This document shows positions 14,880 to 63,339 of a stretch of 64,000 nt of DNA, one piece after another. This DNA is from Escherichia coli (GTDB lineage Bacteria > Pseudomonadota > Gammaproteobacteria > Enterobacterales > Enterobacteriaceae), in NCBI RefSeq assembly GCF_003334765.1, contig NZ_QOWT01000007.1. One strand, 5' to 3'. The position numbers and the translations under genes are program-made. The notes below the pieces were generated by a model. It did no database searches. It saw nothing but the letters and a program-made list of their open reading frames with translations, and was not told the DNA's origin. How positions within the stretch are numbered: position 1 is the stretch's first letter; each line of letters begins with the position of its first letter.

Positions 14880-15743
14880 TTATTCAATATTCTGAATCTG
14901 CTCGCGCATCTGCTCAATCAACACTTTCAGCTCAATCGCGGAGTTTGTCACTTCGGCATTGATAGACTTCGACGCAAGAGTGTTCGACTCGCGGTTGAAC
15001 TCCTGCATCATAAAGTCCAGACGACGACCAACGGCTTCTTTTTTCTTCAGAATGTTGTAGGTCTCTTTGACATGCGCTTCGAGGCGGTCCAGTTCTTCGG
15101 CAACGTCAATTCGTTGTGCCAGCAGAACCAACTCCTGCTCCAGACGGTTGTTTTCCAACTGAACCTGAGCATCTTCCAGCTTCGCGACCAAGCGTTCACG
15201 CTGCCATTGCAGGATTTCCGGCATATGGGAGCGGACTTTGACCACTTCGGCGGTGACGCCTTCCAGACGCTGCTCGATCAATGCTTTCAGTGCCTGACCT
15301 TCGGTTTCGCGCGCGACAATAAAGTCGTCCAGCGTACCATCCAGCGCCGCGAGAATTTCAGCGGCAATGGCGTCAAGATCCTGCTCCTGGGCTGCCATCA
15401 CGCCCGGCCAGCGTAGAATATCAACCGGGTTGATTTCCCCTTCGTCACTCTGCATTTTTACCCAGTTCGCGGCAGTTACCAGCTGTTTAGCCAGTTTTTC
15501 GTTGAGGATCAGCTCACCTTGCGCGCTAACATCTGGCTCATAGCGCAGGGTACATTCCACTTTACCGCGCGTCAGGCGAGAACGAATACGCTCGCGAACG
15601 ACAGGTTCAAGGCTACGGAACTGCTCCGGCAGACGAAAGTAAGTTTCCAGATAACGCTGGTTTACCGAGCGCATTTCCCAGGTTGCGCTCCCCCATTCAC
15701 CCTTGATTTCACGCCGGGCGTAGGCGGTCATACTGCGGATCAT
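14880..15743 (-). CDS. yicC: YicC-family stress-induced protein
   Basis: 287-aa ORF MIRSMTAYARREIKGEWGSATWEMRSVNQRYLET...; divergent from rph. Confidence 0.9.
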   Translation of the reverse strand: MIRSMTAYARREIKGEWGSATWEMRSVNQRYLETYFRLPEQFRSLEPVVRERIRSRLTRGKVECTLRYEPDVSAQGELILNEKLAKQLVTAANWVKMQSDEGEINPVDILRWPGVMAAQEQDLDAIAAEILAALDGTLDDFIVARETEGQALKALIEQRLEGVTAEVVKVRSHMPEILQWQRERLVAKLEDAQVQLENNRLEQELVLLAQRIDVAEELDRLEAHVKETYNILKKKEAVGRRLDFMMQEFNRESNTLASKSINAEVTNSAIELKVLIEQMREQIQNIE

Positions 15744-15869
15744 AGACGTTCCTGTTTATAAAAGGAGAGGTGGAAGGATTATAGCCATCGATGCCTTGTC
15801 AGGATAGGAATAACCGCCGGAAGTCCGTATAATGCGCAGCCACATTTGTTTCAAGCCGGAGATTTCAAT

Positions 15870-16586
15870 ATGCGTCCAGCAGGCCGTAGCAATAATCAGG
15901 TGCGTCCCGTTACCCTGACTCGTAACTATACAAAACATGCAGAAGGCTCGGTGCTGGTCGAATTTGGCGATACCAAAGTGTTGTGTACCGCCTCTATTGA
16001 AGAAGGCGTGCCGCGCTTCCTGAAAGGTCAGGGCCAGGGCTGGATCACCGCAGAGTACGGCATGCTGCCACGTTCTACCCACACCCGTAACGCTCGTGAA
16101 GCGGCGAAAGGTAAGCAGGGTGGACGCACAATGGAAATCCAGCGTCTGATCGCCCGTGCGCTTCGCGCGGCAGTAGATTTGAAAGCGCTGGGTGAGTTCA
16201 CCATTACGCTGGACTGCGACGTGCTTCAGGCTGATGGTGGCACGCGTACCGCTTCGATTACGGGTGCCTGTGTGGCGCTGGCAGATGCGCTACAGAAGCT
16301 GGTGGAAAACGGCAAGCTGAAAACCAACCCGATGAAAGGGATGGTAGCCGCGGTTTCTGTCGGGATTGTGAACGGCGAAGCGGTTTGCGATCTGGAATAC
16401 GTTGAAGACTCTGCCGCAGAGACCGACATGAACGTAGTGATGACCGAAGACGGGCGCATCATTGAAGTGCAGGGGACGGCAGAAGGCGAGCCGTTCACCC
16501 ATGAAGAGCTACTCACCTTGTTGGCGCTGGCCCGAGGGGGAATCGAATCCATTGTAGCGACGCAGAAGGCGGCGCTGGCAAACTGA
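15870..16586 (+). CDS. rph: ribonuclease PH, full length
   Basis: 238 aa from [20 protein letters not shown]... ending ...[16 protein letters not shown]; the wild-type C-terminus is present, not the K-12 rph-1 frameshift form. Confidence 0.9.
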
Positions 16587-16593
16587 TTTTTAA

Positions 16594-16618
16594 GGCGACT
16601 GATGAGTCGCTTTTTTTT
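16594..16618 (+). terminator. rph–pyrE intergenic hairpin + T-run (pyrE attenuator)
   Basis: GCGACT/AGTCGC stem with GATGA loop followed by an 8-T run, placed between the rph stop and the pyrE start. Confidence 0.7.
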
Positions 16619-16650
16619 GTCTGTAGAAAAGTAAGATGAGGAGCGAAGGC

Positions 16651-17292: not shown

Positions 17293-17300
17293 AGAAACTC

Positions 17301-17322
17301 GCCGGATGAAAATTCATCCGGC
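17301..17322. terminator. bidirectional hairpin between convergent pyrE and slmA
   Basis: Inverted repeat GCCGGATGAA-AA-TTCATCCGGC. Confidence 0.6.
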
Positions 17323-17328
17323 GTCATA

Positions 17329-23879: not shown

Positions 23880-24226
23880 AATAAATAGCTGACTTATGGA
23901 TGTGCTGGGGATTCTATGTATTTAGCACCGGGTTTGCCATTACTTTTCCTTTTTTTGACTTAATTAGCCTCTGTTTGAGCTGATCTGCCGCTAGATCTTC
24001 ATTTTTTTTGTATTTTTATGCGATTCATTGAATTTCAGCCAGGATTGCAGCTTTACATCGACAATATCTGGATTCTCGAGTATGCAAAATTTTATCTCTA
24101 TGATTTTTATAATTAAAACATATTTTGTGTATAAAAATCATTCGGGTCGGATTGCTGCGAAAGAAATGATACACTAGCGCGTCAAAGTAAGTGCGTTATC
24201 AGTATTCGGGTAGCTGTTGAGCCTGG

Positions 24227-24238
24227 GGCGGTAGCGTG
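24227..24238 (+). promoter_or_regulatory. ops element GGCGGTAGCGTG (within a JUMPstart-type leader) upstream of waaQ
   Basis: Exact 12-nt ops sequence about 50 bp upstream of the waaQ start, followed by a T-run; RfaH-dependent antitermination site for the waaQ operon. Confidence 0.8.
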
Positions 24239-27299: not shown

Positions 27300-28280
27300 T
27301 TGTTGAAATATAGAAACTTCGTTGCTAAGAAGAAAAATTTATACCAAAACGAAGTGTCGTATGTTAAAAATTTACATATTGCACTATGCTTTGACCGTGA
27401 ATTCATAATGCCAGCGGGTGTTGCATTATATTCAATTATATCCAACAATAGACATATTAACCTTCATTTTCACCTTCTTATATCAGGCATAGAAGAAAAG
27501 GAGTGTTCAGCTTTTTACGAACTAGAAGGTCCTAATACATCAATATCTGTATATTATATAACTGATAAATTTGACATTAATCCGGATACATTAGTTCTTG
27601 GTATTCCTTTATCAACATGTTTACGTTTTTTAATCCCAGAAGTTATTGATGATAAAATAAATAAGATACTTTATCTTGACTGTGATGTCATATGTAATGG
27701 TCCTTTAGATGAACTGGTTGATTATAATTTAAATGCTGATATTGCATGTGTAATTCCAGATTCGCCAGAAATGCAAGAACGTGTAAAAAAATTAGACTAT
27801 GGCATTGAGTTTATTAATTATTTTAATGCCGGGGTTATGTTTATTAATACCAGCGAATGGAAAAAAAATAATATAACACAAAAAGCGTTAGAAATGATCA
27901 ACAGTGGAAAAGTATATAGGTATGCAGATCAGGATGTGCTCAATATTTTACTTAATGGACGAGTGCATTACCTTGATAAGAAGTACAATAATAAGACAAC
28001 ATTGTCAGTACGATGTGATGAAGAACAAAAAAACTTGCCCAACACAATTATAATGCATTATGTTACCCAGAATAAACCATGGTACAAAATATTTAGAGCA
28101 CAAAATTTTGATCATTATTTTTCAAATTCTCCTTGGAAGAACCATAAAAGAAATCTAGCTCCATCATCAAGTGAGATTAGGTTAAAGTCTAAAGTTTTTT
28201 GGCTAGAAGGAAAATATTGTAAAGCCATTTCTTATTATTATAAGTATTTACTTGTTAAATTATTTGGCTTAAAGATTTAG
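27300..28280 (+). CDS. LPS core GT8-like glycosyltransferase at the position occupied by waaS in K-12/R2 clusters
   Basis: 326-aa ORF in very AT-rich DNA; GT8 hallmarks YLDCDVIC, YFNAGVMFINTSEW and DQDVLNILL, clearly paralogous to the two downstream GT8 ORFs. Start codon uncertain (the tool start is a TTG). Confidence 0.6.
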   Translation: MLKYRNFVAKKKNLYQNEVSYVKNLHIALCFDREFIMPAGVALYSIISNNRHINLHFHLLISGIEEKECSAFYELEGPNTSISVYYITDKFDINPDTLVLGIPLSTCLRFLIPEVIDDKINKILYLDCDVICNGPLDELVDYNLNADIACVIPDSPEMQERVKKLDYGIEFINYFNAGVMFINTSEWKKNNITQKALEMINSGKVYRYADQDVLNILLNGRVHYLDKKYNNKTTLSVRCDEEQKNLPNTIIMHYVTQNKPWYKIFRAQNFDHYFSNSPWKNHKRNLAPSSSEIRLKSKVFWLEGKYCKAISYYYKYLLVKLFGLKI

Positions 28281-33221: not shown

Positions 33222-34364
33222 ATGATTAAAAAAATAATATTTACCGTCACACCAATATTTTCTATACCGCCAAAAGGAGCTGCAGCGGTTGAAACATGGA
33301 TTTATCAGGTCGCAAAAAGACTTTCGATTCCAGTAACTATCGCCTGTATTCGAAACGAAGGTTACCCAACCTACACAAAAGTAAATGATCACTGTGATAT
33401 TCACTACATTGGTTTTAGTCGAGTCTATAAACGACTTTTCCAAAAGTGGACTCGACTTGATCCTGTGCCATATTCTCAGCGTATTTTAAATACCCAACCT
33501 AAAAACACTGATCCGAAAGACTCTGTTATTGTTATCCACAATAGCATGAAGCTGTATAAACAGATTCGTAGCAGAAGCCCTCACGCGCAGCTAGTTATGC
33601 ATCTTCATAATGCTTTCGAGCCAGGTGAGTTAGACAAAAATGCAAAGATAATTGTTCCTAGCCAGTTTCTTTTCGATTTCTATTCGGAAAAAATGCCTGA
33701 TGCAAATATTGCTATTGTGCCTAATGGTTTTTGTTCTGAATCGTATGAACAAAATAATACTGAAGATTTGAGGCAGAAACTGAACATTGATGCAAATGAT
33801 ACCGTGTTATTATTTGCAGGAAGGATATCACCAGATAAAGGTTGCCTGATGCTTATGGAGGCTTTTAATCAGCTGAATAAGATACAAGATAACCTCAAAC
33901 TGGTGATTGTCGGAGATCCTTTTGCCAGTAAAAAAGGCGAAAAAGCTGAATATCAGAAAAAAGTTCTGGATGCAGCGAAAGCTATTGGAGCGCAATGCAT
34001 TATGGCGGGTGGACAGCCTCCAGAGCAGATGCATAACTATTACCGTTTAGCAGATTTAGTTGTTGTTCCTTCTCAGGTAGAAGAAGCTTTTTGTATGGTA
34101 GCTGTTGAAGCGATGGCGGCAGGTAAACCAGTGCTTGCCAGTCAAAAAGGTGGAATTAGTGAGTTTGTTCTGGAAGGAATTACAGGCTATCACCTTGCAG
34201 AGCCTATGACATCTGAAAGTATTCTCGCGGATATTAAGCGCGTTTTGGCGGATGCTGACAGAGCTCAAATTGCTAAAAATGCCCGAAATTTTGTTTTCTC
34301 AAAATATAGCTGGGAACATGTTACTCAGCGTTTTGAAGCACAAATACAAGACTGGTTTGGTTAA
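33222..34364 (+). CDS. waaK: GT4 glycosyltransferase, WaaK-like (alpha-1,2-GlcNAc transferase of R2/Salmonella-type cores)
   Basis: About 380 aa from ATG 33222 (MIKKIIFTV..., GGAG about 10 nt upstream); GT4 EX7E region EEAFCMVAVEAMAAGKPVLASQKGGISEFV. This is not the GT9 WaaU found in K-12. Confidence 0.7.
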   Translation: MIKKIIFTVTPIFSIPPKGAAAVETWIYQVAKRLSIPVTIACIRNEGYPTYTKVNDHCDIHYIGFSRVYKRLFQKWTRLDPVPYSQRILNTQPKNTDPKDSVIVIHNSMKLYKQIRSRSPHAQLVMHLHNAFEPGELDKNAKIIVPSQFLFDFYSEKMPDANIAIVPNGFCSESYEQNNTEDLRQKLNIDANDTVLLFAGRISPDKGCLMLMEAFNQLNKIQDNLKLVIVGDPFASKKGEKAEYQKKVLDAAKAIGAQCIMAGGQPPEQMHNYYRLADLVVVPSQVEEAFCMVAVEAMAAGKPVLASQKGGISEFVLEGITGYHLAEPMTSESILADIKRVLADADRAQIAKNARNFVFSKYSWEHVTQRFEAQIQDWFG

Positions 34365-34383: not shown

Positions 34384-34420
34384 GCCTGCCTGAACTTAAT
34401 GTCAGGCAGGCTTTTTTTTA
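34384..34420. terminator. bidirectional hairpin terminator between convergent waaK and waaL
   Basis: GCCTGCCTGA-acttaat-GTCAGGCAGGC followed by a T-run (A-run on the other strand). Confidence 0.7.
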
Positions 34421-35635
34421 TTTATTCCGCATTGCTAACAGTAAACCAACAATCAAGCCAATTGGTTTGAGATCAACTTCCTCGAAGTTACCTCGAATAA
34501 TATAAAAGCTTACAAGCGTTAAAAATAGTAGTAATTGACCATTATAAGGAGTGACGACAACTGTTTTAAACGTTGCATTAGCTGTCTCTTTGATAATAGA
34601 GCCATACAGATAAAGTAAAGCGAGTAGTCCAGCCAAACCCGCTGCAAACCAAATTGACAAAACAACGTTGTGTGGCCCAATGGATTGCCTGAACTTCCAT
34701 GACGGAAAATCTACAACACGCTTATTATATATTGCATGGTAAATATCATCGCCGTAGCCATATCCCTTAAGAGGATTTTCCATAATTAATGTCCACGCCG
34801 TACCTTGAGTACCATTGGTATAGCGATAAGAACTGTCGGTCTGTTGAAGTTTATAAATAAGCCTGTCTTTACCAGCATGATCACCTTTATAGGTAAATAC
34901 ACCCACTGCGGCAACAGAAATAACGATGGAAGTCAGCATCAATAATTTCCACTGACGATTTAAGATTAACCATAGCAGAGTCACTATGAATACTGCCAGC
35001 CATGCACCACGAGACAGCGTTCCTAATAGCAGAAATAAGAAAACTGCACTAAAAATTACGAATGCTATTTTATAAGAGGTTTTCTTGATAAGCCAAAGGT
35101 TTAATAATGCTGGAAACAGAAACACCATTGAATCGGAAATACTACGGTGTTCATAGGTGGAAAATGGCATTATTCCTTTATTATAATCCTGAATATAAAG
35201 AATAAGTTCAACAAGACAACGTAAGCCAAGTCCGGTAACTAATGAGTATAGTACAATTTTACCAATGCTTTCATTATCTTCATCTTTTAATAATGCAGGT
35301 ATAAGTAAACTATAGGCCAAAAATCCTTTAAGTACCGTATTACTGAATTCTTTAAAACTGATTTTCAGATCAGGTGATATAAAAGTAGCATATAAAAGAA
35401 TGAGTGATAGTGCCAGGACACTATAAAAAAGATTATTTTTATAGAGTACTTTAAATGTTCCCGGAGCACGAGAAACTTGATAGATTACCGTAATAATCAT
35501 TAGTATAGATATGATGTGTTTATAACGGGTTATACCATCAAGGAAAAAGGTTGCAATAAAGAGGAATACCAACGCTTTATTCCAGTACGGTTTCCACTTT
35601 TCTTTATTACGTAGCGCCAGCGAGGCTGTTAACAT
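34418..35635 (-). CDS. waaL: O-antigen ligase
   Basis: 405-aa polytopic membrane ORF MLTASLALRNKEKWKPYWNKALVFLFIATFFLDGITRYKHI...; position downstream of waaC; AT-rich. Confidence 0.85.
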   Translation of the reverse strand: MLTASLALRNKEKWKPYWNKALVFLFIATFFLDGITRYKHIISILMIITVIYQVSRAPGTFKVLYKNNLFYSVLALSLILLYATFISPDLKISFKEFSNTVLKGFLAYSLLIPALLKDEDNESIGKIVLYSLVTGLGLRCLVELILYIQDYNKGIMPFSTYEHRSISDSMVFLFPALLNLWLIKKTSYKIAFVIFSAVFLFLLLGTLSRGAWLAVFIVTLLWLILNRQWKLLMLTSIVISVAAVGVFTYKGDHAGKDRLIYKLQQTDSSYRYTNGTQGTAWTLIMENPLKGYGYGDDIYHAIYNKRVVDFPSWKFRQSIGPHNVVLSIWFAAGLAGLLALLYLYGSIIKETANATFKTVVVTPYNGQLLLFLTLVSFYIIRGNFEEVDLKPIGLIVGLLLAMRNK

Positions 35636-38740: not shown

Positions 38741-38953
38741 AACTGTAACCTTCGAATTGTGGAGTCAGAGACAATCTCAGACACGAATACTTCTATCATA
38801 TCACTACACGGCGCTGGCTACAGCCATTCACCGAAAGTGGTATGCCTGAGCGTGATTTATGCTTATTTTTTGACAAGTACAAATGCTTCATCTCGTATCA
38901 ACCTATGGCTTTCGGTAATATGTGCTGAAATTTGCCCAGTCTGGAGAATCGCG

Positions 38954-48942: not shown

Positions 48943-49764
48943 ATGTCGTGTGAAGAACTGGAAATTGTCTGGAACAATATTAAAGCCGAAGCCAGAACGC
49001 TGGCGGACTGTGAGCCAATGCTGGCCAGTTTTTACCACGCGACGCTACTCAAACACGAAAACCTTGGCAGTGCACTGAGCTACATGCTGGCGAACAAGCT
49101 GTCATCGCCAATTATGCCTGCTATTGCTATCCGTGAAGTGGTGGAAGAAGCCTACGCCGCTGACCCGGAAATGATCGCCTCTGCGGCCTGTGATATTCAG
49201 GCGGTGCGTACCCGCGACCCGGCAGTCGATAAATACTCAACCCCGTTGTTATACCTGAAGGGTTTTCATGCCTTGCAGGCCTATCGCATCGGTCACTGGT
49301 TGTGGAATCAGGGGCGTCGCGCACTGGCAATCTTTCTGCAAAACCAGGTTTCTGTGACGTTCCAGGTCGATATTCACCCGGCAGCAAAAATTGGTCGCGG
49401 TATCATGCTTGACCACGCGACAGGCATCGTCGTTGGTGAAACGGCGGTGATTGAAAACGACGTATCGATTCTGCAATCTGTGACGCTTGGCGGTACGGGT
49501 AAATCTGGTGGTGACCGTCACCCGAAAATTCGTGAAGGTGTGATGATTGGCGCGGGCGCGAAAATCCTCGGCAATATTGAAGTTGGGCGCGGCGCGAAGA
49601 TTGGCGCAGGTTCCGTGGTGCTGCAACCGGTGCCGCCGCATACCACCGCCGCTGGCGTTCCGGCTCGTATTGTCGGTAAACCAGACAGCGATAAGCCATC
49701 AATGGATATGGACCAGCATTTCAACGGTATTAACCATACATTTGAGTATGGGGATGGGATCTAA
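48943..49764 (+). CDS. cysE: serine O-acetyltransferase
   Basis: 273-aa ORF MSCEELEIVWNNIKAEARTLADCEPMLASFYHATLLKHENL...; hexapeptide repeats. Confidence 0.95.
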   Translation: MSCEELEIVWNNIKAEARTLADCEPMLASFYHATLLKHENLGSALSYMLANKLSSPIMPAIAIREVVEEAYAADPEMIASAACDIQAVRTRDPAVDKYSTPLLYLKGFHALQAYRIGHWLWNQGRRALAIFLQNQVSVTFQVDIHPAAKIGRGIMLDHATGIVVGETAVIENDVSILQSVTLGGTGKSGGDRHPKIREGVMIGAGAKILGNIEVGRGAKIGAGSVVLQPVPPHTTAAGVPARIVGKPDSDKPSMDMDQHFNGINHTFEYGDGI

Positions 49765-49779
49765 TGTCCTGTGATCGTG

Positions 49780-49813
49780 CCGGATGCGATGTAATCATCT
49801 ATCCGGCCTACAG
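49780..49813. repeat. REP (palindromic unit) between cysE and trmL
   Basis: GCCGGATGCG...CCGGCCTAC-type imperfect palindrome. Confidence 0.6.
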
Positions 49814-49816
49814 TAA

Positions 49817-50290
49817 CTAATCTCTCAATACCGCTCCCGGATACCCCAACTGCCGCCAGGCTTCATACACCACTACCGACACCGCATTGGACAGATTCAT
49901 GCTGCGGCTGTCCGGCACCATCGGAATGCGAATTTTTTGTTCAGCGGGCAGGGCATCAAGAATGCTCGCTGGCAGGCCGCGTGTTTCCGGGCCGAACATC
50001 AGATAATCGCCATCCTGATAGCTTACGGCGCTGTGAGCAGGTGTACCTTTCGTGGTGAGGGCGAACAGGCGCTGGGGATTTTCTGCTTCGAGGAACGCGC
50101 GATAGTCATGATGACGCGTAACGGCGGTAAACTCGTGATAGTCCAGCCCCGCGCGGCGCAGGCGCTTATCGTCCCAGGCAAATCCCATCGGTTCGATGAT
50201 ATGCAGACGAAAGCCGGTATTAGCGCAAAGACGGATGATGTTGCCAGTATTTGGCGGAATTTCTGGTTCGTAAAGTACGATGTTTAGCAT
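49817..50290 (-). CDS. trmL: tRNA (cytidine/uridine-2'-O)-methyltransferase TrmL
   Basis: 157-aa SpoU-family [44 protein letters not shown]... Confidence 0.9.
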
Positions 50291-50487
50291 ACTGCCCCCT
50301 TAGTGCGGGGGCAGGATAGCAGAAAATTGGTGAGCAGTGCGGCCTTTTCCCCTCACCCCGGCCCTCTCCCCGGAGGGGCGAGGGAGAAAAAAAGAGTGCG
50401 GTGTCGTTTCAGAGTGAGGGAGTACATACAGCGCCGAACGGTCCCCTCTCCCTGAGGGAGAGGGTTAGGGTGAGGGGGCGCAAACGA
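50291..50487. repeat. cluster of GC-rich palindromic repeats (box C-like CCCTCACCC/CTCTCC...GGAGAGG arms) between trmL and lldD
   Basis: Two imperfect palindromes (cccctcaccccggccctctccccggaggggcgagggag and cccctctccctgagggagagggttagggtgaggggg); the same arm motif recurs at 57107-57165 and 57275-57308. Confidence 0.7.
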
Positions 50488-51678
50488 CTATGCCGCATTC
50501 CCTTTCGCCATGGGAGCCAGTGCCGCAGGCAACTCTTTACCCAGCCCCTGCACCAGCGAATCTTGCGTAATTTCGCTGATCGATTTCGCGCCAGTCAGCG
50601 TCATCGCCACTTTCATCTCTTTTTCGATCAGATTTAGCAGGTTAGCTACACCCGCCTGGCCCGCTGTTGCCAGCGCATACAAGAAAGCACGACCCAGCAG
50701 TACGGTATCGGCACCGAGCGCAATCATACGCACGACATCAAGCCCGTTACGAATTCCGCTATCCGCCAGAATGGCTATATCACCTTTCACCGCATCTGCA
50801 ATAGCAGGCAGTGCACGGGCGGAAGAGAGTACACCGTCCAGCTGGCGGCCACCGTGGTTAGAAACCACAATTCCATCAGCACCAAAACGTACTGCATCGC
50901 GCGCATCTTCCGGATCGAGGATCCCTTTGATCACCATCGGGCCATCCCAGAAATCGCGGATCCATTCAAGGTCTTTCCATGAGATGGACGGATCGAAGTT
51001 ATTCCCCAGCCAGCCGATGTAATCTTCCAGTCCGGTCGGTTTGCCGAGATAAGCTGAGATATTACCTAAATCATGTGGACGACCGTTCAGGCCCACATCC
51101 CACGCCCATTGCGGATGTGTCACCGCTTGCAAGTAGCGGCGCATTGCCGCGTTCGGGCCGCTCATACCTGAATGCGCATCACGGTAGCGTGCGCCCGGTG
51201 TCGGCATATCCACGGTGAAAACCAGCGTCGAACAACCCGCTGCTTTTGCTCGCTCCAGCGCGTTACGCATAAAGCCGCGATCGCGCAGTACATAAAGCTG
51301 GAACCACATTGGGCGCTTGATGGCTGGCGCGACTTCTTCAATCGGGCAAACGGAAACCGTCGAGAGAGTAAACGGAATACCATGCGCGTCCGCCGCTTTG
51401 GCTGCCTGAACTTCGCCACGACGCGCATACATGCCACACAAACCCACCGGAGCCAGTGCCACCGGCATCGACAATTTCTCATTAAACAGCGTCGTTTCCA
51501 GGCTTAAGTCGGACATGTTTTTCAGAATACGCTGGCGCAGCGCCACTTCTGACAAATCTTCCACGTTGCGGCGCAGCGTGTATTCAGAATATGCACCACC
51601 ATCCATATAGTGGAACAGGAACGGCGGCAGAATGCGTTGCGCTGCGGCGCGATAATCGCTGGCTGCGGAAATAATCAT
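50488..51678 (-). CDS. lldD: FMN-dependent L-lactate dehydrogenase
   Basis: 396-aa [45 protein letters not shown]... Confidence 0.95.
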
Positions 51679-52451
51679 GCGTTTTTCTCCCTCGAATGCT
51701 CATTATGCTCACCGGGCAGGCGGGTAATCCGTGCGTGGCGAGCCTGATCTTCATCGAATCGTTTCATGGTGGTGTGAACAAAACTAAGGTGCGCCATCAT
51801 TGCTTTACGCGCCCCGTCAGCATCACCGGCAAAAATGGCGTCAATGACAGCCTGATGTTGTTCGGTCAGTTGTGAAAAAACCGGTGGCACCAGATACATC
51901 CGCTGACGGCTATGCTTCACTGAGGATTGCAGGACATCGAAGAAACCGCGCATGGTTTGCAGCAGCACGATGTTATGTGAGGCTTCGGCAATCGCCAGAT
52001 GAAAACGAACGTCCGCTTGTGAGGCGATATCCGGGTCTTCACTTAGCGTTGCTTCAAAGCAAAGCTGAATCTTTTCTTTGTCGCCAGGTGTGGCGCGCAT
52101 TGCCGCATGCCATGCGGTGCTGGCTTCAATGGCGTAGCGGGCTTCCAGAATATCGAAACTGTAATCCGGATCATCGGCCATCAGTGTTTTTAGCGGCTGG
52201 ACGATGTTTTGCTCCGACCATGTGTCATGACGCCAGCGAATAAACGTCCCGCCGCCGCGTCGACTGAGCAGCACGCCTTCACTCACCAGTTTTGCCAGCG
52301 CCTCGCGCAGTGAATTACGTGATACGCCGAGTTGCATCGCCAGTTGGCGCTCAGCGGGCAACTTCATGCCCGCTTCCAGGTTTTTTTCATCAATCAGCGC
52401 CCGCACACGATCGGCAACCTCGTCTGACAGGCGTCTGGGTAAAACAATCAT
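51675..52451 (-). CDS. lldR: GntR/FadR-family regulator of the lld operon
   Basis: 258 aa from internal Met [52 protein letters not shown]; start overlaps the lldP stop (TAATG). Confidence 0.9.
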
Positions 52452-54106
52452 TAAGGAATCATCCACGTTAAGACATAAGCCTGAAGCGTGGTGATCACGC
52501 CCACTATACAGGTGAAGATCAGGCTGTGTTTGACAGTAAAGCGGAACAAATCAGACTCTTTGCCCACCAGGCCTACCGCCGCACAGGCGATAGCGATAGA
52601 TTGCGGGGAGATCATCTTACCGGTGACGCCACCGGTGGTATTGGCGGCAACCAGCAACAGATCAGAGACGCCAATTTGTTGTGCTGCGGTGGCTTGCAGC
52701 GCGGCGAACAGGGCGTTAGATGAGGTATCCGACCCGGTCAGGAATACCCCCAGCCAGCCGAGGAACGGCGAGAAGAAGGTGAATGCATGACCGGTGTGCG
52801 CCAGTGCCAGCGCCAGTGTTGATGACAGTCCGGAATAGTTCGAAATAAAGGCGAATGCCAGCACCATACCGATGGAGTAGATGGGCAGAGCCAGTTCTTT
52901 CAGCGTGCTGCCGAAGGTGCTGATAGCGTCAGACGGTTTCATCTTCAGCCAGACAATCGAGAGCAGTGCAGCAAACAGAATGGCGGTGCCGGTGGCAGAG
53001 AACCAGTCAAACTTAAACACGGCGGCATAGGCTGTAGCCTCGCTGACCACTGGCGGCATACGGGCAACCAGTTTATCGAGGTACGGCACCGGAATATTGA
53101 TCACCCACTCATACAGCGCGCCACCCGATGCGAACAGGGCTTTAAACGGCGGGATACTCCACAGTGTTACGGTAGCTGTCAGGAACAGGAACGGTGTCCA
53201 GGCACGTAACACCTGACCCGCAGTGTAACCGGTGTGGGCCAGCGTCATATCAACCTGTGACGCCCCCAAATCACCAAAACGGAATACACGCACTGGCTGC
53301 CAGCGTTTGAGGAACAGCGTCAGGCAGAGCAGTGATACCAGCGAAGAGATAATGTCCGGCAGCTCCGGCCCAATGAAGTTAGAGCTAAGGTACTGAGCGA
53401 TGGCAAACGAGCCGCCCGCAACCACGACCGCAGGCCACGTCTCTTTGATACCGCGCCAGCCGTCCATAATCGCCATGATCCAGAACAGCACGATAATGGT
53501 CATAAACGGTAGCTGCCGCCCCACCATCTGACCAATCTCAAAGCTGTCGATACCTGTTACCTGTCCGGCAACCAGGATTGGAATGCCCATCGCACCAAAT
53601 GCCACTGGCGCGGTGTTAACAATCAGGCACAGCCCGGCGGCGTACAGCGGTTTAAAACCCAGGCCGACCAGCAATGCGGCGGTAATTGCTACCGGTGCGC
53701 CAAAGCCTGCGGCTCCTTCAAGGAACGCGCCGAAACAGAAACCGACGATCAGCATTTGCAGACGCTGGTCAGGGGTTATCGAAAGAATAGACGAGCGAAT
53801 GATGTCAAACTGCCCGGTTTTCACCGAGATCTTATAGACGAACACCGCTGCAATAATGATCCACGCGATGGGCCACAACCCGTAGAAGAAACCATAAACC
53901 ACCGAGGCCAGCGCGTTAGCGACCGGCATTTTATAGAACAGCAAAGCCACGGCAAGGGCGATTGCCACCGTCCACGAGGCGGCGACGTATCCTTTCAGTT
54001 TGAGCTTAATCAGCGCAAAGAAGAAAAACAGGATGGGAAGCGATGCTATCAGACTGGAAAGCCAGATATTCCCGGCGGGATCGTAGTTTTGTTGCCAGAG
54101 ATTCAT
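52451..54106 (-). CDS. lldP: L-lactate permease
   Basis: 551 aa from internal Met [40 protein letters not shown]...; polytopic. Confidence 0.9.
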
Positions 54107-54394
54107 TGCAGGTCTCCTGGAGTCCACGCACATCGTGTAATGAGTCTGTTGCTCATCTCCTTGTCACACGTTGTGTAAAAGTGGCACTGCCAATTGTGTT
54201 GTGTAGGGATAATGACAATGAATGGTTAACTAAATGTTATGTATTGGCAACATTGATGTGAGTTTTAATTGGGAAATTGTGAACCAGAGGTCAGATAAGC
54301 GAAGAATTGGTAGGGCCAATTCTTGTGGGGGGAGATGTCTGGTAAAGAAAAGGGCAATCCTCATCAGAGAATTGCCCTTAGGTTGTTGATCCAG

Positions 54395-54447
54395 AGCGCC
54401 TTATCTTGCCGGATGCGGCGTGAACACCTTACTCGGCCTATAGGAAT
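54395..54447. repeat. REP element downstream of yibL
   Basis: gcgccttatcttGCCGGATGCGGCGTGAACACCTTACTCGGCCTAtagg, REP palindromic-unit signature. Confidence 0.6.
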
Positions 54448-54477
54448 GTGCAGAATCACCCTGTAGATACTGTGTTC

Positions 54478-54840
54478 TTAAAACGCGGTCTTTGAAAACC
54501 CAGTCATCTCCTGCAGGCCCATTTCGCGGCCCAGTGCGGTCATTGGGTGCACAACGACCAGTCCGCAAACACTTTTCTTCAGCTTGCCCATATCAGCCTG
54601 CTCTTTTTTGGTAATTGCGCGCTGGAATGGCATCTTCATCAGCTTCTGTGCTTCTTTACTCAGTTTTTGGCTATGAACTTCACGCAGGCGAGCAATTTCT
54701 GCTTCCAGCGTGGCTTTCTCTTTTTCCAGCTCGGCATATTTGTCTGCGGCTTCAACCAGCGAAAGATCGGCCTGCTGGTGGCGGATGGCGTCCAGGCGAT
54801 CGCTGAGACGTTTGATTTCGTTTTTTTCGACTTCTTTCAT
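54478..54840 (-). CDS. yibL: uncharacterised ribosome-associated protein YibL
   Basis: 120-aa [58 protein letters not shown]... Confidence 0.8.
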
Positions 54841-55124
54841 GTGATGGCTTCTGATAAAGATAAATTTATAGCCCCTAGTATGCGCGACCAGGTGCTTTGT
54901 TCACAACTAATGACATTGTAATAGTTCTGTAACGTAATCATTAACATGCTCAAAAACTACGCAATTCGTTGATTAATTAAGAAATCTATAGAAAAAAGAT
55001 AATAAACAGCAGCGGATGATTATTGAGGATTCAGCACGTTTTCCTTAATGTCATCTTTACCGGGAACCTAAACTAAAATTGGCGGCCGCGCATTCCCGGC
55101 GCGGGGTAATACGGAGATATCATC

Positions 55125-55334
55125 ATGGGCAAATTAGGTGAAAACGTTCCGCTTCTTATCGATAAAGCCGTAGATTTCATGGCATCAAGCCAGGCGTTCC
55201 GGGAGTATCTGAAAAAACTTCCTCCCCGTAACGCGATTCCGTCCGGAATACCCGATGAAAGCGTGCCGTTATATCTACAACGTCTGGAGTATTATCGTCG
55301 GCTTTATCGGCCGAAGCAGGTAGAGGGGCAGTAA
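55125..55334 (+). CDS. yibT: small uncharacterised protein YibT
   Basis: 69-aa [44 protein letters not shown]...; synteny between yibL and mtlR. Confidence 0.65.
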
Positions 55335-55345
55335 GCAGACGTTGC

Positions 55346-55933
55346 TTACTTTTGAAAGGCTTTTTTTAAGCTGATTTTGGAAATCAGCTCAGTCAGTGAA
55401 AGGACCATTGTTGATCGCACAGCCTGTTGATAGCGCTGAATTTGCATTGCATACAAACTGGAGTCTGCTGGTTCAAACTGTGGCGGCGGTGGTAACGCCG
55501 CCACGCAGTGCAGTTCACCAAAGGGTCCAAGGATTTCGTCGTCGGTAAAGGCGTACTCGTTGCCGTCGTGATTTAGCTCTTCACGCAATGCCATCAGCAG
55601 TTCCGCATCTTCGTATTCCTGGCGGTTAATGACGCCCAACCCGTAAATGAGTTTTAAACGCACAGAAAGATCGCCCAGCGGACCATCGCCGTCGAGTAAC
55701 GGTTCTACAGCATACTTCACCGCGTAATCGTCTTTGCGGAATACCTGAAGCACCAGAAGATTTACCGCCTCGGTCAGGAGCTCGACGGCGGTGATCAGAA
55801 AGCTTCGCACGGTTTTGCCAGCATTCAGACGCTCAAGCACACGGTTTTCAAAGGCCTGGGTTTGTTCCATTGTTGCCTGCATATCTGACAATCTGTTATT
55901 CGGGCGCAGGGTGTCCTGCGCCTGGTCCACCAT
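55346..55933 (-). CDS. mtlR: mannitol operon repressor
   Basis: 195-aa [45 protein letters not shown]... Confidence 0.9.
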   Translation of the reverse strand: MVDQAQDTLRPNNRLSDMQATMEQTQAFENRVLERLNAGKTVRSFLITAVELLTEAVNLLVLQVFRKDDYAVKYAVEPLLDGDGPLGDLSVRLKLIYGLGVINRQEYEDAELLMALREELNHDGNEYAFTDDEILGPFGELHCVAALPPPPQFEPADSSLYAMQIQRYQQAVRSTMVLSLTELISKISLKKAFQK

Positions 55934-57081
55934 TATTGCATTGCTTTATAAGCGGTTACCGCCTCGGATACAACCTCGCTGTTGGCATCAAGACCGGAAA
56001 TCTGTGCCAGCGCCGCCTGCGGACCTTTGTCAGCGATCAGTGCTGCCAGTTCCTGAGCCTGCGGATCATCTTCACTGCGGAAGTGCATTGCAGCGGCAAT
56101 ACCTTCAATCAGGTTTTTATGTGGCAGACCATATTCCAGCGTACCGAGCAGTGGCTTGATCAGACGGTCGCCAGCACTCAGTTTACGCAGTGGCTGACGG
56201 CCTACGCGCTCTACATCATCTTTCAGATACGGGTTCTCAAAACGGCCGAGAATTTTCTGGATGTACGCCGCATGCTTGTCAGCGTCAAAGCCGTAGCGCT
56301 TGATCAATACTGCACCACTTTCTTCCATCGCACCTTTTACCACCGCGCGGATTTTCTCGTCGAGAATCGCGTCACGAATGGTCTGATGACCGGCCAGTTT
56401 TCCGAGGTACGCGGTTATAGCATGACCCGTGTTCAGGGTGAAGAGTTTACGTTCGACAAATGCCATCAGGTTGTCGGTTAACTCCATGCCTGGGATGTTC
56501 GACAGTGCGCCTTTGAACTGCGTTTTATCGACAATCCATTCGCTGAAGGTTTCTACCGTCACTTCCAGCGGATCGTTAGTTGCCGAAGCCGAAGGCGGTA
56601 CGATGCGGTCAACGGCGGAATCGACAAAGCCAACGTGTTCTTCTACCCACGCTTTGGCGTCTTCCGGCAGGGCGTTCATCACATGGCCTTTCAGCTGCGT
56701 GGTACCGCGTACCATGTTTTCACAGGCGATGATGTTCAGCGGGGATTCATTACCTTGTTCTTTACGTTTCACCAGCCCTTTGGCGATTGCCGGAGCAATA
56801 CGTTCCAGCACAACCGGGCCAACGGCGGTAGTGACTAAATCAACCTGAGCAATCAGATCAACGACATCATCACCAATGCTGCTGACAGCATTGACGCCGG
56901 AAACGGTATCTACCTGCTCGGTTTCACCAACCACATGTACCTGATAGCTATGACGGGCATTCAGGGCATCAAGTACCACCTGATTGACATCGGCAAACGT
57001 CAGTTGGATACCCGCGTCTGCCAGCAGTTTACCGATAAAGCCACGACCGATATTACCTGCGCCAAAATGTAATGCTTTCAT
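55933..57081 (-). CDS. mtlD: mannitol-1-phosphate 5-dehydrogenase
   Basis: 382 aa from ATG 57081 ([24 protein letters not shown]...); the longer tool ORF reads through the REP region upstream. Confidence 0.95.
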
Positions 57082-57106
57082 AGTATTAACCTTCATCAAT
57101 GTTTTT

Positions 57107-57308
57107 ACCCGAGAGGGCTGGGGTGAGGCTTTTCCCTCACCCAAACCCTCTCCGTGAGGAGAGGGGCAGCGCCGGATGCGGCGTAAGCGCCTTATCCGGC
57201 CTACAAGAACGTGCAAATTCAACAAATTGTGATGCATCCTGTAGGCCTGATAAGCGTAGCGCATCAGGCAATTAACCCCACCTTCTCCATGTGGAGAGGG
57301 TGGGATTG
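57107..57308. repeat. BIME-type cluster: two inverted REP units (57171-57204, 57237-57270) flanked by box C-like palindromes, between mtlA and mtlD
   Basis: GCCGGATGCGGCGTAAGCGCCTTATCCGGCCTACA and inverted TGTAGGCCTGATAAGCGTAGCGCATCAGGCA; flanks gggtgaggcttttccctcacccaaaccctctccgtgaggagagggg and ccccaccttctccatgtggagagggtggg. Confidence 0.8.
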
Positions 57309-57310
57309 GA

Positions 57311-59224
57311 TTACTTACGACCTGCCAGCAGTTCCAGCACTTCATCCACGCTGGTGGTGTGTGCCAGACGCTCGATGACGGACTCATCATCCAGTGCATT
57401 GGTCAGGCTGGTGATAACCTGAATGTGCTCGTTGTTACGGGCAGCAATACCAATCACCAGACGGGCAATGTCATCTTCTTCTTCACCGAAGCGCACGCCT
57501 TCCGGGTACTGGCAGAACACGACGCCCGTTTTCAGTACGCGATCTTTCGCTTCAACCGTACCGTGTGGCACCGCGATAGACTCACCCAGATAAGTCGGGG
57601 TCAGTTTTTCACGATCCAGCATCGCCTGAACGTATTCCGGCTCAACGTAACCGCCTTTCACCAGCTGCTCGCCAGCAAAACGAATCGCTTCTTCTTTGGT
57701 TGCCGCTTTGCGACCGAGGAAGATGTTCTCCGCGCCTAGCTTGAACAGGTTAGCACTGGAATCGTCAAAGCTGTCTTTCAGGCTGTCTTTTACTTTCTCT
57801 TCGTTTGCCGTGTGGCGTTGGGCAGCAACCAGACGTTCGGTCAGGCTGGTGTACAGGCCGCTGTCGAGGAAGTTGGTCAGCGAAATATGCTGTGCCTGCG
57901 GAACCTGGCGCATAGCGCGTTCGGTCAGGTCACGGTGAGTGATGACGAGGTCCACATCTGGCGGCAGGTTGTTGATCGCGCTGTTAGTAACAGAAATCTG
58001 CGACAGACCTGCATCCTGAATTTTCTTACGCAGAACGCCTGCGCCCATCGCACTGGAACCCATACCGGCGTCACAGGCAACGATGATTTTACGTACGTGG
58101 CTCAGGTCGTTAGTCACATCGCCAGCAGACAGCGGAGATGCGCCTTTAGACTCAGCTTTCATGTCCTGCATACGACGAGTTGCTGCTTCAATATCATCTT
58201 CTTCTTTCACTTTGCTGGTTTTCAGCAAAATAGCAGAGACAACGAAGGAGACAGCCATCGCCGCACACACACCCGCGATGTTAGCGAAGTAAGCACCTTT
58301 TGGTGTCATCGCCAGTACAGCAAGGATAGAACCCGGAGATGCCGGAGAAACCAGACCACCGCCCAGGATAGTCAGCGTGAACACGCCAGTCATACCGCCG
58401 AGGATGACTGCGAGGATCAGACGCGGATTCATCAGCACATACGGGAAGTAGATTTCGTGGATACCCCCCAGGAAGTGGATGATTGCCGCACCGCCCGCAG
58501 ACTGTTTAGCGCTACCACGACCAAAGAACATGTACGCCAGCAGCACGCCCATACCTGGACCTGGGTTAGCTTCAATCAGGAAGAAGATTGATTTACCCAG
58601 TTCATGGGACTGCTGAATACCCAGCGGCGAGAAGATACCGTGGTTAATGGCGTTGTTGAGGAACAGGATTTTCGCCGGTTCAACAAAGATAGACGCCAGC
58701 GGCAGCATGTCATGGACAACCATGAAGTTAACGCCCGCAGCCAGCATTTTGGACAGGGCTTCAACAATCGGGCCAATGCCGAGGAATGCCAGAATAGCGA
58801 GGATCATCCCGATGATGCCTGCGGAGAAGTTATTCACCAGCATCTCAAAACCGGATTTGATCTTACCGTCTACCCAGCGGTCGAAGTGCTTAATGCACCA
58901 GCCGCCCAGCGGACCTGCAATCATAGAACCGAGGAACATCGGCATGTCTGCGCCGACGATAACGCCCATGGTGGTGATGGCACCGACTACGCCGCCACGT
59001 TCGCCGCCTACCAGCTTACCACCGGTATAACCGATCAGCAGCGGCAGGAGATAAGTGATCATCGGCCCGACCAGCTTCGCCAGCGTCTCGTTCGGTAACC
59101 ACCCTGTTGGAATAAATAACGCGGTGATGATACCCCACGCGATAAACGCGCCGATATTTGGCATCACCATGTTGCTGAGGAAACGACCAAAGCTTTGCAC
59201 TTTGATCTTAATATCGGATGACAT
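57311..59224 (-). CDS. mtlA: PTS mannitol-specific EIICBA component
   Basis: 637-aa [42 protein letters not shown]... Confidence 0.95.
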
Positions 59225-59367
59225 AAAAACACCCCTTCTTATGTTTGCTGTCGCGCAGGCTGGAAGCCCGAGGTTTTTTGTTAATGTGGCGGCAGAGGTA
59301 GCCGGACCTTGTAGATACTGCGAAATCTGGCACTGAATCGGTTAACTGTCCAGTCGACGGCCTTTTG

Positions 59368-59544
59368 TGTGATATCAATCACATAAATATAGGGGGTAGA
59401 GAGGTAATTGACGTGACGTTCATCACAAAACGCTTGTGTAAAAAAGCAACAAGGCGGCGATTTTCGCTAAAAATGGCATTTAAATGTGAGTAGTGTCACA
59501 TTTTTGTTTTGATGGTTTGTTGAATCTTTGTGATCTGAATCACA
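59368..59544 (-). promoter_or_regulatory. mtlA promoter region with several CRP-like sites (TGTGA-N6-TCACA)
   Basis: Sites at 59368-59383 (tgtgatatcaatcaca), 59485-59500 (tgtgagtagtgtcaca), 59529-59544 (tgtgatctgaatcaca), plus a weaker gtgacgttcatcaca at about 59411-59426, all upstream of mtlA. Confidence 0.7.
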
Positions 59545-59760
59545 AGATATTTTCTTACGGCGTTCACCTGATGTGATCTACAGCATGTTATGCCTTCGTC
59601 ATACAATCGTTATGTAACTAAGCAACTCATCACCTCTAAAAATTATTCTTTGGTGTTATGGCGAGAATCGCGAACCCGGATTATTGTCAAAATATCAGCC
59701 TGACTCCCTTCTGGCTGCCAGCCCAAAAACAACACTGATAAACGTGAATCCGAGGCAGAT

Positions 59761-60123
59761 ATGTTTCTAAACTATTTCGCGTTGGGAGTGCTGATCTTCG
59801 TCTTTCTGGTGATTTTTTATGGAATCATCGCGATACATGACATCCCTTATCTGATTGCCAAAAAGCGCAACCATCCCCATGCCGACGCTATTCATACGGC
59901 GGGCTGGGTGAGCCTGTTTACTCTGCATGTTATCTGGCCGTTTCTGTGGATCTGGGCGACGCTCTATCAACCGGAGCGTGGCTGGGGTATGCAGTCACAT
60001 GTTGCGTCGCAGGAGAAAGCGACTGACCCGGAAATCGCCGCACTTTCTGACCGAATTTCCCGGCTGGAGCATCAACTCGCCGCCGAGAAAAAGACTGACT
60101 ATTCCACGTTCCCGGAGATCTAA
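59761..60123 (+). CDS. yibI: small inner-membrane protein YibI
   Basis: 120-aa [60 protein letters not shown]... Confidence 0.8.
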
Positions 60124-60125
60124 TT

Positions 60126-61262
60126 ATGGATCTATTGATTGTTTTAACTTACGTGGCGCTGGCGTGGGCGGTCTTTAAAATCTTCCGCATTCCGGTAAAT
60201 CAGTGGACGCTGGCGACGGCGGCGCTGGGAGGCGTGTTTCTGGTGAGTGGTTTGATTTTGTTGATGAACTACAACCACCCTTACACTTTTACCGCGCAAA
60301 AGGCAGTGATAGCGATCCCTATCACGCCACAGGTGACGGGAATTGTTACTGAAGTCACTGACAAGAATAATCAGCTTATTCAAAAGGGCGAGGTGCTTTT
60401 TAAGCTCGACCCGGTTCGTTACCAGGCGCGAGTTGACAGACTTCAGGCTGACCTGATGACGGCGACGCATAATATAAAGACGCTGCGTGCGCAGCTCACT
60501 GAAGCGCAGGCCAACACCACCCAGGTTTCAGCGGAGCGCGACCGTCTGTTTAAAAATTATCAACGTTACTTGAAAGGCAGCCAGGCGGCGGTGAATCCGT
60601 TCTCGGAACGTGACATCGACGATGCGCGGCAAAATTTCCTCGCGCAGGATGCGCTGGTGAAAGGCTCGGTGGCGGAGCAGGCGCAGATCCAGAGCCAGCT
60701 CGACAGTATGGTTAACGGCGAGCAATCGCAGATTGTGAGCTTAAGAGCGCAACTTACTGAAGCAAAATATAACCTTGAGCAGACTGTCATTCGCGCGCCG
60801 AGCAATGGCTACGTTACTCAGGTACTGATCCGCCCAGGTACATACGCAGCTGCCTTGCCGCTGCGTCCGGTGATGGTCTTCATCCCCGAGCAAAAACGGC
60901 AAATTGTCGCCCAATTTCGGCAAAACTCGCTGTTACGTCTGAAACCCGGCGATGATGCGGAAGTGGTGTTTAACGCGCTACCTGGGCAGGTGTTTCACGG
61001 CAAACTGACTAGTATTTTACCTGTCGTGCCAGGCGGTTCTTATCAGGCGCAGGGGGTATTGCAATCATTAACGGTCGTGCCCGGCACGGACGGTGTGCTG
61101 GGAACCATTGAACTGGACCCTAACGATGATATCGATGCCTTACCCGACGGCATCTACGCCCAGGTGGCGGTTTACTCCGACCATTTCAGCCATGTTTCGG
61201 TGATGCGGAAAGTGCTGCTAAGAATGACCAGCTGGATGCATTATCTTTATTTGGATCATTGA
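60126..61262 (+). CDS. yibH: HlyD-family membrane-fusion (periplasmic adaptor) protein
   Basis: 378-aa ORF with N-terminal TM helix, coiled-coil segments and beta-barrel-like C-terminus; start 3 bp after the yibI stop. Confidence 0.8.
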
Positions 61263-61824
61263 GGGGGAGGGGGGAGATTATGGAACTTTGCTCCTTGTAA
61301 GGACTAATTATTTTTGCATATTACTTCATTAGCTGCGATGATTTTTCTTTAATATTCATTATGTTAATAAGTTCTGGATGAGTGTGCTCTCATTGGATTT
61401 TTTATCCGTCTTGTTCTGCCGCAGGATGAGACTATACATCGTCGAGATCGCAATGATGATATGAGTTGTTCCTCCTGCGACGGCTCTAATCAAAAAAGAG
61501 CAGGAGTGCTTTTCCATCTATTGCGATGATGGCTTTATTATCTGAAGGATGACAGTCACATTTAAAAAATATTTAATCTATAGATCACAATGTAGGGTCA
61601 TGGAATATATGTATACAACTATTTTCTTCTTCACTTTTAATTATCGTATTCATTATAAAACTAAGTTAAAAAAACTCCTGGAGAGTGAGTTATTAATATA
61701 TTTTTAAATAAAATTAAGTTATCATTCATCGATGCACTTTATAGAATCATCAATGGCCATAATAGTACTATTAACTCTCAATTTTATATTTTTATCATCA
61801 CTACAAATATTAACTGAATTTATA

Positions 61825-62160
61825 TCAATGATTTTTTTTATTCTTATCTTTTATTTTATTTACTGTTTCAATGCAATCAGCGGCAAGTTGGAGTGGATTT
61901 AGATTTTTCAGATATGGTCTTATGATCTTTCCCTTACTTAATAAATAGCATGTATAGGATTCGGAAAGTCCAGCATCTATTTTGTACCTCCTTATATTAG
62001 ATAAGGATGTGAGAAATTCCTTGTTATCATTCGCAGCCATATATGCCAGTCCGAGTTCAGCCTCTGCGGCCTTACAGGCAAAATAGCTTAGTGAACACGC
62101 TTTTCGTCCCTCTTTAGTACTGGCTGATATTAGTGCCCATAATATTGCTTTGTCTGCCAA
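61825..62160 (-). CDS. hypothetical 111-aa protein downstream of a decayed Rhs C-terminal fragment (candidate orphan immunity protein; possibly yibV)
   Basis: 111-aa ORF MADKAILWALISASTKEGRKACSLSYFACKAAEAELGLAYMAANDNKEF... in AT-rich DNA; position relative to the Rhs remnant. Confidence 0.4.
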   Translation of the reverse strand: MADKAILWALISASTKEGRKACSLSYFACKAAEAELGLAYMAANDNKEFLTSLSNIRRYKIDAGLSESYTCYLLSKGKIIRPYLKNLNPLQLAADCIETVNKIKDKNKKNH

Positions 62161-62248
62161 ATCTAACTCTCTCTGAAATTGTCTTGCAGTAACTGCACTC
62201 GCAGAAATAGAGAAAAAAATACAATTGTTAATAACCTTGCCATATTTT

Positions 62249-62866
62249 TTAGTCCGTAACTGTTAATGTGCTATCTGGCTCTGAAAATATTAACTCATTT
62301 AATTTTTGCATGTCATTAGATAAACCAGTTATACAACCCTCGGAACAGAATCGAGGTCCTAAAGACGGACCAAAAGCGTTTAAACAACTATGTATTGAAA
62401 ATCCATTGCGATTATAAGTTCCTGTATTAACTGACGGTACTAATCGTATGCCGTCAGGTTTTCTATTGCTTGCTCCCGGGTCATTAACATTCCAACTCCA
62501 TAGGCCTTGAGGTATTGGCTATCTATTTATAAATGTGTACAACGGGGATTATTTTTACATTGCATATTATTACCAGAAGCGACTGGAATACTAAGCACAT
62601 CATAAAAATTATCATCACATGGTATATCTGAAACACACGAAAGCATACCTAAAGTTATGCTGTATAAACAGGTGGCTAATCCCAAGGGGATCGATTCCAG
62701 AAATCGGGTTCAACGGATACTGATAAAAATTCCACCTACCTTCCAGCCCAATCGGAGCCTGAGTGTTATACCGCCCCTGCTGCGGTTAATGTTACCGATA
62801 ATAGTTATAGTACAGCCCTGATTCATCATCATACTACTGCTGCGGCAGTCTGATGAACTATTGCTT
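62249..62866 (-). pseudogene. decayed orphan Rhs C-terminal fragment (core-end remnant + disrupted CT domain)
   Basis: 62706-62860 is a diverged copy of the Rhs core-end DNA at 63857-64000. Minus-strand translation gives [53 protein letters not shown]... with in-frame stops and a downstream frameshift; no ORF of 60 aa or more. Confidence 0.65.
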
Positions 62867-63328
62867 TTACGGATTCTCCTTATTCTTCCTTCTATCCATT
62901 CGCTTTAGCTTTTTGAGCTCTTGAAGTTTGCTCTTTGCATCAATATTACCGTTATTTACAGCGAATTCCATCCAATAAATAGCTCTATTCAAATTATAAT
63001 ATTCTGATAATGTTGGATTTGTATCTGATAAAAAGACCCCATAATTAAACTGCGCTGTAACATTCCCCTGAGATGCTGATCTTTCCAAGAATCGCAATTG
63101 TTTGTAAATGTTATTTTTAGTAAAGCAGTAATATTGATATAGTCGAAATGATGCCTCTGAATCACCATGTTGTGATTTATACTTCAGTTTCATCAACTTT
63201 TCTTCACTTAAATCATAGGTCATTGCTGTAGACCCCATCATACTTTCGTTTTGTTTTATTTTCACATCAGCACCATGCAATTGACAAATAAAAGAGAAAT
63301 AAAAAAATAGTAACAAGCATGCTTTCAT
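62867..63328 (-). CDS. yibG: Sel1-like repeat protein with N-terminal signal/TM segment; candidate immunity protein for the upstream Rhs C-terminal domain
   Basis: 153-aa ORF MKACLLLFFYFSFICQLHGADVKIKQNE...SASQGNVTAQFNYGVFLSD (Sel1-like motif); start 12 bp after the Rhs-CT stop. Confidence 0.6.
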   Translation of the reverse strand: MKACLLLFFYFSFICQLHGADVKIKQNESMMGSTAMTYDLSEEKLMKLKYKSQHGDSEASFRLYQYYCFTKNNIYKQLRFLERSASQGNVTAQFNYGVFLSDTNPTLSEYYNLNRAIYWMEFAVNNGNIDAKSKLQELKKLKRMDRRKNKENP

Positions 63329-63339
63329 ACATCTACAAC

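Follow-up and report, generated by a model that had tools for sequence, protein, structure and literature searches.

Organization of the rph–pyrE locus

The DNA analysed here is a stretch of 64,000 nucleotides from Escherichia coli, referred to as the window, which carries rph, encoding RNase PH, followed by an attenuator and by pyrE, encoding orotate phosphoribosyltransferase (Table 1). The rph product aligns with the NCBIfam equivalog TIGR01966 from end to end, at a score of 380.8 bits (cut-off 141.5) and with residues 2–236 lying on positions 1–235 of the 236 in the profile, and the GGTRT motif of RNase PH occupies residues 123–127. The initial annotation had described a full-length rph with the wild-type C-terminus, and the open reading frame bears this out. 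The protein is of the length of active RNase PH and is predicted to have phosphorolytic 3′–5′ exoribonuclease activity. An identical rph sequence in strain H3 is annotated as rph (WP_001247093.1), and the PyrE of H3 is WP_000806177.1, an accession that is also found in MC4100, EPI300 and Rosetta2(DE3).

Table 1. Positions in the window of the features of the rph–pyrE locus and of the waa segments that differ from K-12.
Feature	Position	Strand	Basis	Remark
rph, RNase PH, 238 aa + TGA	15870–16586	+	ORF, translation, TIGR01966	717 nt; ATG at 15870
GGGGG run	16536–16540	+	alignments	intact; one base is lost here in K-12 rph-1
rph stop codon TGA	16584–16586	+	sequence	7 nt 5′ of the first stem base
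U-rich spacer TTTTTAA	16587–16593	+	sequence	from stop to hairpin
pyrE attenuator hairpin	16594–16611	+	folding, terminator scan	GGCGACU, loop GAUG, AGUCGC(U); 5′ arm 16594–16600, loop 16601–16604, 3′ arm 16605–16611
Single C	16610	+	alignments	CC in K-12 and other matched enterobacteria; one base of the 3′ arm deleted (derived)
T8 run of the intrinsic terminator (attenuator)	16611–16618	+	sequence, terminator scan	
pyrE Shine-Dalgarno GAGGAG	16638–16643	+	sequence only	7 nt before ATG
pyrE, orotate phosphoribosyltransferase, 213 aa	16651–17292	+	TIGR00336, 240.6 bits	
Hairpin with 10-bp stem	17300–17323		terminator scan	operon-end terminator between convergent pyrE and slmA
waa segment differing from K-12	27178–28292			gene 27300–28280 (+)
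waa segment differing from K-12	33125–35730			genes 33222–34364 (+) and 34418–35635 (−)

A consensus promoter scan found no sigma-70 match 5′ of rph, and no promoter was assigned there. A perfect TATAAT is present at 15828–15833 (+), 37 nt before the rph ATG, with no acceptable −35 hexamer at 16–18 nt. Two 10-bp direct repeats, GCAGAAGGCG, lie 83 nt apart at 16479–16488 and 16562–16571 and are conserved in the window; in MG1655 these repeats mediate the recurrent 82-bp rph–pyrE deletion of laboratory evolution.

Between the two genes lies an intrinsic terminator made up of a hairpin and a U-run, which was also detected by the terminator scan. The hairpin folds with −13.8 kcal/mol in a 43-nt context (z = −4.9), and none of 200 shuffled sequences was as stable. 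The rph stop codon sits directly 5′ of this hairpin and T-run (16594–16618), as the initial annotation had it, and the 7-nt gap places the stop less than a ribosome footprint away from the 5′ arm. The spacing from TGA to stem is the same in representatives of Escherichia, Citrobacter, Pseudocitrobacter, Silvania and Enterobacter, and in rph+ K-12. The hairpin that follows the pyrE stop directly was reported by the terminator scan on the minus strand. When the window was searched against Rfam at gathering thresholds, no pyrE attenuator family was found, and the only match was a JUMPstart element (RF01707, 53.1 bits) at 24200–24238 (+), in the leader of the waaQ operon.

The operon itself is already known, and its sequence is public and annotated in hundreds of genomes; over 1,701 nt the rph–pyrE locus is 100% identical to many natural isolates. 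The sole mildly new item at this locus is a natural attenuator allele whose hairpin has a single C in its 3′ arm, at a site where K-12 has two.

The rph-1 site and its use in strain typing

The locus is the same as that which carries the rph-1 allele known from the K-12 strains MG1655, W3110 and BW25113, an allele said to have been described by Jensen in 1993. By alignment, the G run affected in rph-1 has four G in MG1655 and five in MC4100, EPI300 and the window; the window therefore lacks the rph-1 deletion, in agreement with what the initial annotation had expected of an alignment with MG1655. Removal of one G from the rph of the window in silico yields the MG1655 product, which has 228 aa and ends in ARGESNPL. 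In MG1655 the frameshift moves the annotated stop to 29 nt before the wild-type stop and to 36 nt from the hairpin, whereas in the window the frame is full and this distance is 7 nt.

A 35-nt probe specific for the four-G allele matched 169 of 5,426 complete E. coli genomes, and all 60 of the matches sampled had names of K-12 derivatives, or K-12-like coordinates and genome sizes, with MG1655, BW25113, J53 and HMS174 among them. With its five G the window is, by this test, no member of the rph-1 lineage of K-12, which is derived from W1485. A second probe, which combined one K-12 SNP with five G, matched 1,478 genomes, and these included the K-12 strains MC4100 and EPI300, in which the fifth G is the only difference from MG1655 over 950 nt. 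Five G on the K-12 haplotype were also found in C600, DH5alpha, NEB 5-alpha, DH1, HST04, RR1, DHB4 and others. In the literature, EMG2, MG1655 and W3110 are listed as rph-1 and WG1 as being without it (PMC9997739), and RR1 is given as having a normal rph, with rph-1 first appearing at W1485 in Bachmann's pedigree (PMC5379014).

As MC4100, DH10B-type strains, DH5alpha, DH1, C600 and RR1 are all rph+, what an intact rph excludes within K-12 is the rph-1 branch alone, that is MG1655, W3110, BW25113 and J53. The initial annotation had concluded from the intact gene that the source is not a K-12 laboratory lineage, and had recommended the gene for strain typing. The conclusion on the source holds, through nine SNPs in rph, some 1,500 differences from MG1655 over the window as a whole, the waa genes and the missing htrL, but the argument from the intact gene does not, given that rph+ K-12 strains exist; for typing, the gene separates a strain from the rph-1 branch but leaves K-12 as such possible. 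Since K-12 strains too may have an intact rph, typing must use the haplotype together with variable loci such as waa, and this caution is the main value of the observation for strain typing.

The rph+ K-12 strains (MC4100, DH10B/EPI300, C600 and DH5alpha) share with the window the gene order, a 238-aa RNase PH and the PyrE accession, and are identical to it in the stop-to-hairpin spacing, the loop, the T8 run and the Shine-Dalgarno sequence. They differ from it by nine SNPs in rph, two of which are non-synonymous (A138V and T216I), and by the attenuator 3′ arm, which has one C fewer in the window.

Source of the window

The window is collinear with MG1655 3,767,505–3,832,418 in inverted orientation. 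Its first 27 kb are 98.0% identical to MG1655 (533 mismatches), the part from waaB to waaZ 87–88% and the last 25 kb 98.9%. There is no alignment to MG1655 at all in two segments, and the alignable parts differ from it at 1,524 positions in total. The divergence is mosaic, with about 15 differences in 49000–64000 (lldPRD, mtlADR and yibH/I), 9–15% in the centre of waa and 0.1–2% per kb elsewhere. Around rph, 15196–16159 has zero differences from MG1655 over the 5′ part of yicC, the intergenic stretch and rph up to its nucleotide 290, and is followed by nine SNPs in 16160–16526, which looks like a recombination boundary within rph. The part of the window from 50001 to 64000 also holds something present in many copies, with a median of 19 per E. 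coli genome and a maximum of at least 40, presumably short interspersed repeats.

The closest complete genome is that of strain H3, isolated from human faeces in Mexico, which has three mismatches in 64 kb: it is exact over 1–25000 and, judged by bit score, has two mismatches in 25001–50000 and one over 50001–64000. The whole 64-kb window had no exact match among the complete genomes of the collection.

An origin in another classical laboratory strain, such as E. coli B, an ML35-like strain or an NCTC stock, was considered, as rph is intact in E. coli B and as ML35 and NCTC9087 match the window with 100% identity, be it in the 1.7-kb locus or in the first 25 kb. The comparison with E. coli B suggested alongside the initial annotation was made with Rosetta2(DE3), in which rph is indeed intact but lies 10 SNPs away from that of the window and is followed by a CC attenuator, and E. 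coli B was rejected as the source on these two differences. In the first 25 kb the bit score of ML35 is short of an exact match by the equivalent of one mismatch, and in the last 14 kb (a span of 14,001 nt) by 28 bits; that of NCTC9087 is short by the equivalent of about four mismatches in 25–50 kb. The natural isolates H3 and IAL725x are nearer than the laboratory stocks compared, namely E. coli B, ML35 and NCTC9087. A laboratory stock of this kind is thus a very improbable source.

Still less probable, to the point of being barely worth entertaining, is an rph+ K-12 lineage of the MC4100, DH10B, DH5alpha, C600 or WG1 type, in which case the intact rph would be uninformative. Such strains are common (PMC9997739; PMC5379014), and the stretch from 49 to 64 kb is nearly identical to MG1655, but every K-12 strain examined has one and the same rph haplotype, with V and I in place of A138 and T216, together with the CC attenuator, and the window lies nine SNPs and an indel away from it. 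The mismatches with MG1655 in the first 27 kb and the low identity from waaB to waaZ also speak against this origin. The waa LPS-core cluster of the window is of a non-K-12 type, and its waaL region is unaligned at the DNA level. In the positions of waaS and waaU of K-12 the window holds unrelated genes, in the former a family-8 glycosyltransferase that does not resemble WaaS and in the latter a WaaK-type GlcNAc transferase (NF012028, 724 bits). In MG1655 about 1.3 kb between rfaD and kbl is taken up by htrL. The window lacks this gene, and the homologous blocks on either side are about 60 nt apart (window 38789–38850). The alignments of haplotype, waa and htrL led to the rejection of an rph+ K-12 origin; the window has neither the rph and flank haplotype of K-12 nor its waa core cluster.

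On sequence grounds, then, the source is not K-12. The locus is very likely the wild-type bicistronic rph–pyrE operon of a natural, phylogroup-A-like E. coli near strain H3 that is neither K-12 nor B.

A single-C allele of the attenuator

The hairpin of the window is 1 nt shorter than that of K-12, a second indel at this locus that is absent from the initial annotation. The 3′ arm reads GAGTCG-C-TTTTTTTT in the window and GAGTCG-CC-TTTTTTTT in MG1655, MC4100, EPI300 and E. coli B, so the window departs from the consensus hairpin GGCGACUGAUGAGUCGCC by one C in the 3′ arm.

The distribution of the allele among E. coli was read from the identity bands of a 90-nt query across the site, which was found exactly in 484 of 5,425 genomes (~9% of complete genomes). 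Nearly all of the sampled remainder aligned over a 91-nt span at 98.9% identity, which corresponds to the CC form, with K-12 DHB4, CFT073, LF82, O157:H7 and Rosetta2(DE3) as examples. That the window was missequenced or misassembled, as might be suspected where the missing C adjoins the T8 homopolymer, is scarcely credible when the identical 90-nt sequence recurs in 484 independent complete genomes and the deleted base comes from a run of two C, not from a long homopolymer.

In a pattern scan across species, with one genome per bacterial species and with one or two bases allowed at the site, all 18 matched representatives had CC within the same 27-nt hairpin followed by T8, and their flanks were variable. 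The pattern demanded an otherwise exact hairpin, so that the 18 stand for species with this hairpin and species with other hairpins were not counted. The matched species include E. albertii, an Escherichia sp. and members of Citrobacter, Leclercia, Pseudocitrobacter, Silvania and Enterobacter. The recurrence of the 27-nt hairpin, the T8 run and the stop spacing in at least six genera indicates that the attenuator element is conserved, and the presence of CC in all 18 species representatives indicates that the single C is a deletion derived within E. coli. A chimeric query that joined the K-12 rph 3′ haplotype to the single C had no exact match. The sequences are consistent with a single origin of the allele.

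UTP-sensitive attenuation and the predicted effect of the single C

The translation of the end of rph has been linked to pyrE attenuation (PMC2784333; PMC6941894), in a coupling model attributed to Bonekamp et al. (1984) and Jensen (1993) where these are cited in PMC2784333 and PMC6941894. The dynamics of this model come from K-12 work, and for the operon of the window they would run as follows. The expression of pyrE would be controlled by the intercistronic UTP-sensitive attenuator, with the ribosome ending rph 7 nt before the hairpin and, while on the last rph codons, trailing RNA polymerase. When UTP is low, the polymerase would pause in the U-rich stretch and the ribosome would be near enough to mask the 5′ arm of the hairpin, such that no terminator would form and pyrE would be transcribed. 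When UTP is high, the polymerase would run ahead, the hairpin and U-run would form, and transcription would end at the T-run. In rph-1 strains the ribosome is released 36 nt before the stem, which results in constitutive termination and in cells that are short of pyrimidines; the early stop uncouples translation from the attenuator, and pyrE is therefore lowered. The logic is the same as that of the pyrBI leader of E. coli, where UTP-dependent pausing of the polymerase lets the ribosome block an intrinsic terminator, but pyrBI has a dedicated short leader peptide, whereas in rph–pyrE the "leader" is the 3′ end of the full-size rph.

The coupling geometry of the window, as far as sequence can tell, is wild type, which upholds one part of the statement in the initial annotation that pyrE attenuation should be normal here. 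The statement needs a caveat, however, since the hairpin has lost one nucleotide, which is a derived state, and is predicted to be weaker. The single C turns the bottom G-C pair of the stem into G.U and leaves the other six pairs, all Watson-Crick, and the whole T8 run in place. The predicted stability is −13.8 kcal/mol with the single C and −15.8 kcal/mol with CC in a 43/44-nt context, and −11.6 versus −14.3 kcal/mol for the stem and U-run alone, making the single-C hairpin 2.0–2.7 kcal/mol weaker than the consensus in these predictions. From this modelling the terminator is very probably functional, and the hairpin is expected to work as an attenuator with read-through that is at most modestly higher.

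Mutations in the same element have been selected in the laboratory. One of them, which is selected when rph-1 K-12 is evolved in culture, is an intergenic C>T at AM187 position 3,808,847 (supplement to PMC6941894). It maps to MG1655 3,815,825, with the offset between the two genomes taken from the matches of the rph-1 probe in both, and is on the sense strand a G-to-A change of the second G of the 5′ arm (window 16595). The loss of one base from the T-run, at pyrE −40, has also been described, with the proposal that it disrupts the terminator (PMC5892946). Together with the 82-bp deletion, these attenuator-relief lesions affect the same element as the single C. The second G of the 5′ arm belongs to the two bottom G-C pairs, and opposite it in these pairs is the CC run that is reduced in the window; the single C is therefore located in the two stem-base pairs that one of the selected lesions also affects, and is adjacent to another lesion. 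As one of the two bottom G-C pairs is also the target of a laboratory relief mutation, the regulation of pyrE in the window may not be quantitatively "normal". A literature search on the rph–pyrE attenuator hairpin found nothing relevant among the papers listed.

Weaker termination could raise pyrE or blunt UTP control in the lineage that carries the allele, and the uniformity of the CC form in the matched species, the derived state of the single C, the predicted loss of stability and the repeated selection of small attenuator lesions in rph-1 K-12 all point in this direction. The change is nonetheless a mild one, and the laboratory G-to-A mutant is far more destabilising, with a predicted −8.6 kcal/mol. 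The laboratory lesions also arose in an rph-1 background, whereas the allele in the window is natural and stands in an rph+ background. Attenuation in rph-1 strains is abnormally strong, and lesions selected there are a poor guide to rph+ strains. The allele moreover sits on one haplotype, which is consistent with neutral hitch-hiking. A functional effect of this kind is on balance unlikely, although it keeps appreciably more weight than the other alternatives considered here.

It may tentatively be suggested, as a doubtful but conceivable reading, that the single C is a naturally fixed regulatory mutation that would raise basal pyrE read-through in one sub-lineage of E. coli, comprising about 9% of complete genomes. 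If this is true, the allele would be a natural counterpart of the attenuator-relief mutations of laboratory evolution. In either case, a common lineage with a one-base deletion in a textbook attenuator offers a cheap natural test of the part that stem-base stability plays in UTP-sensitive attenuation.
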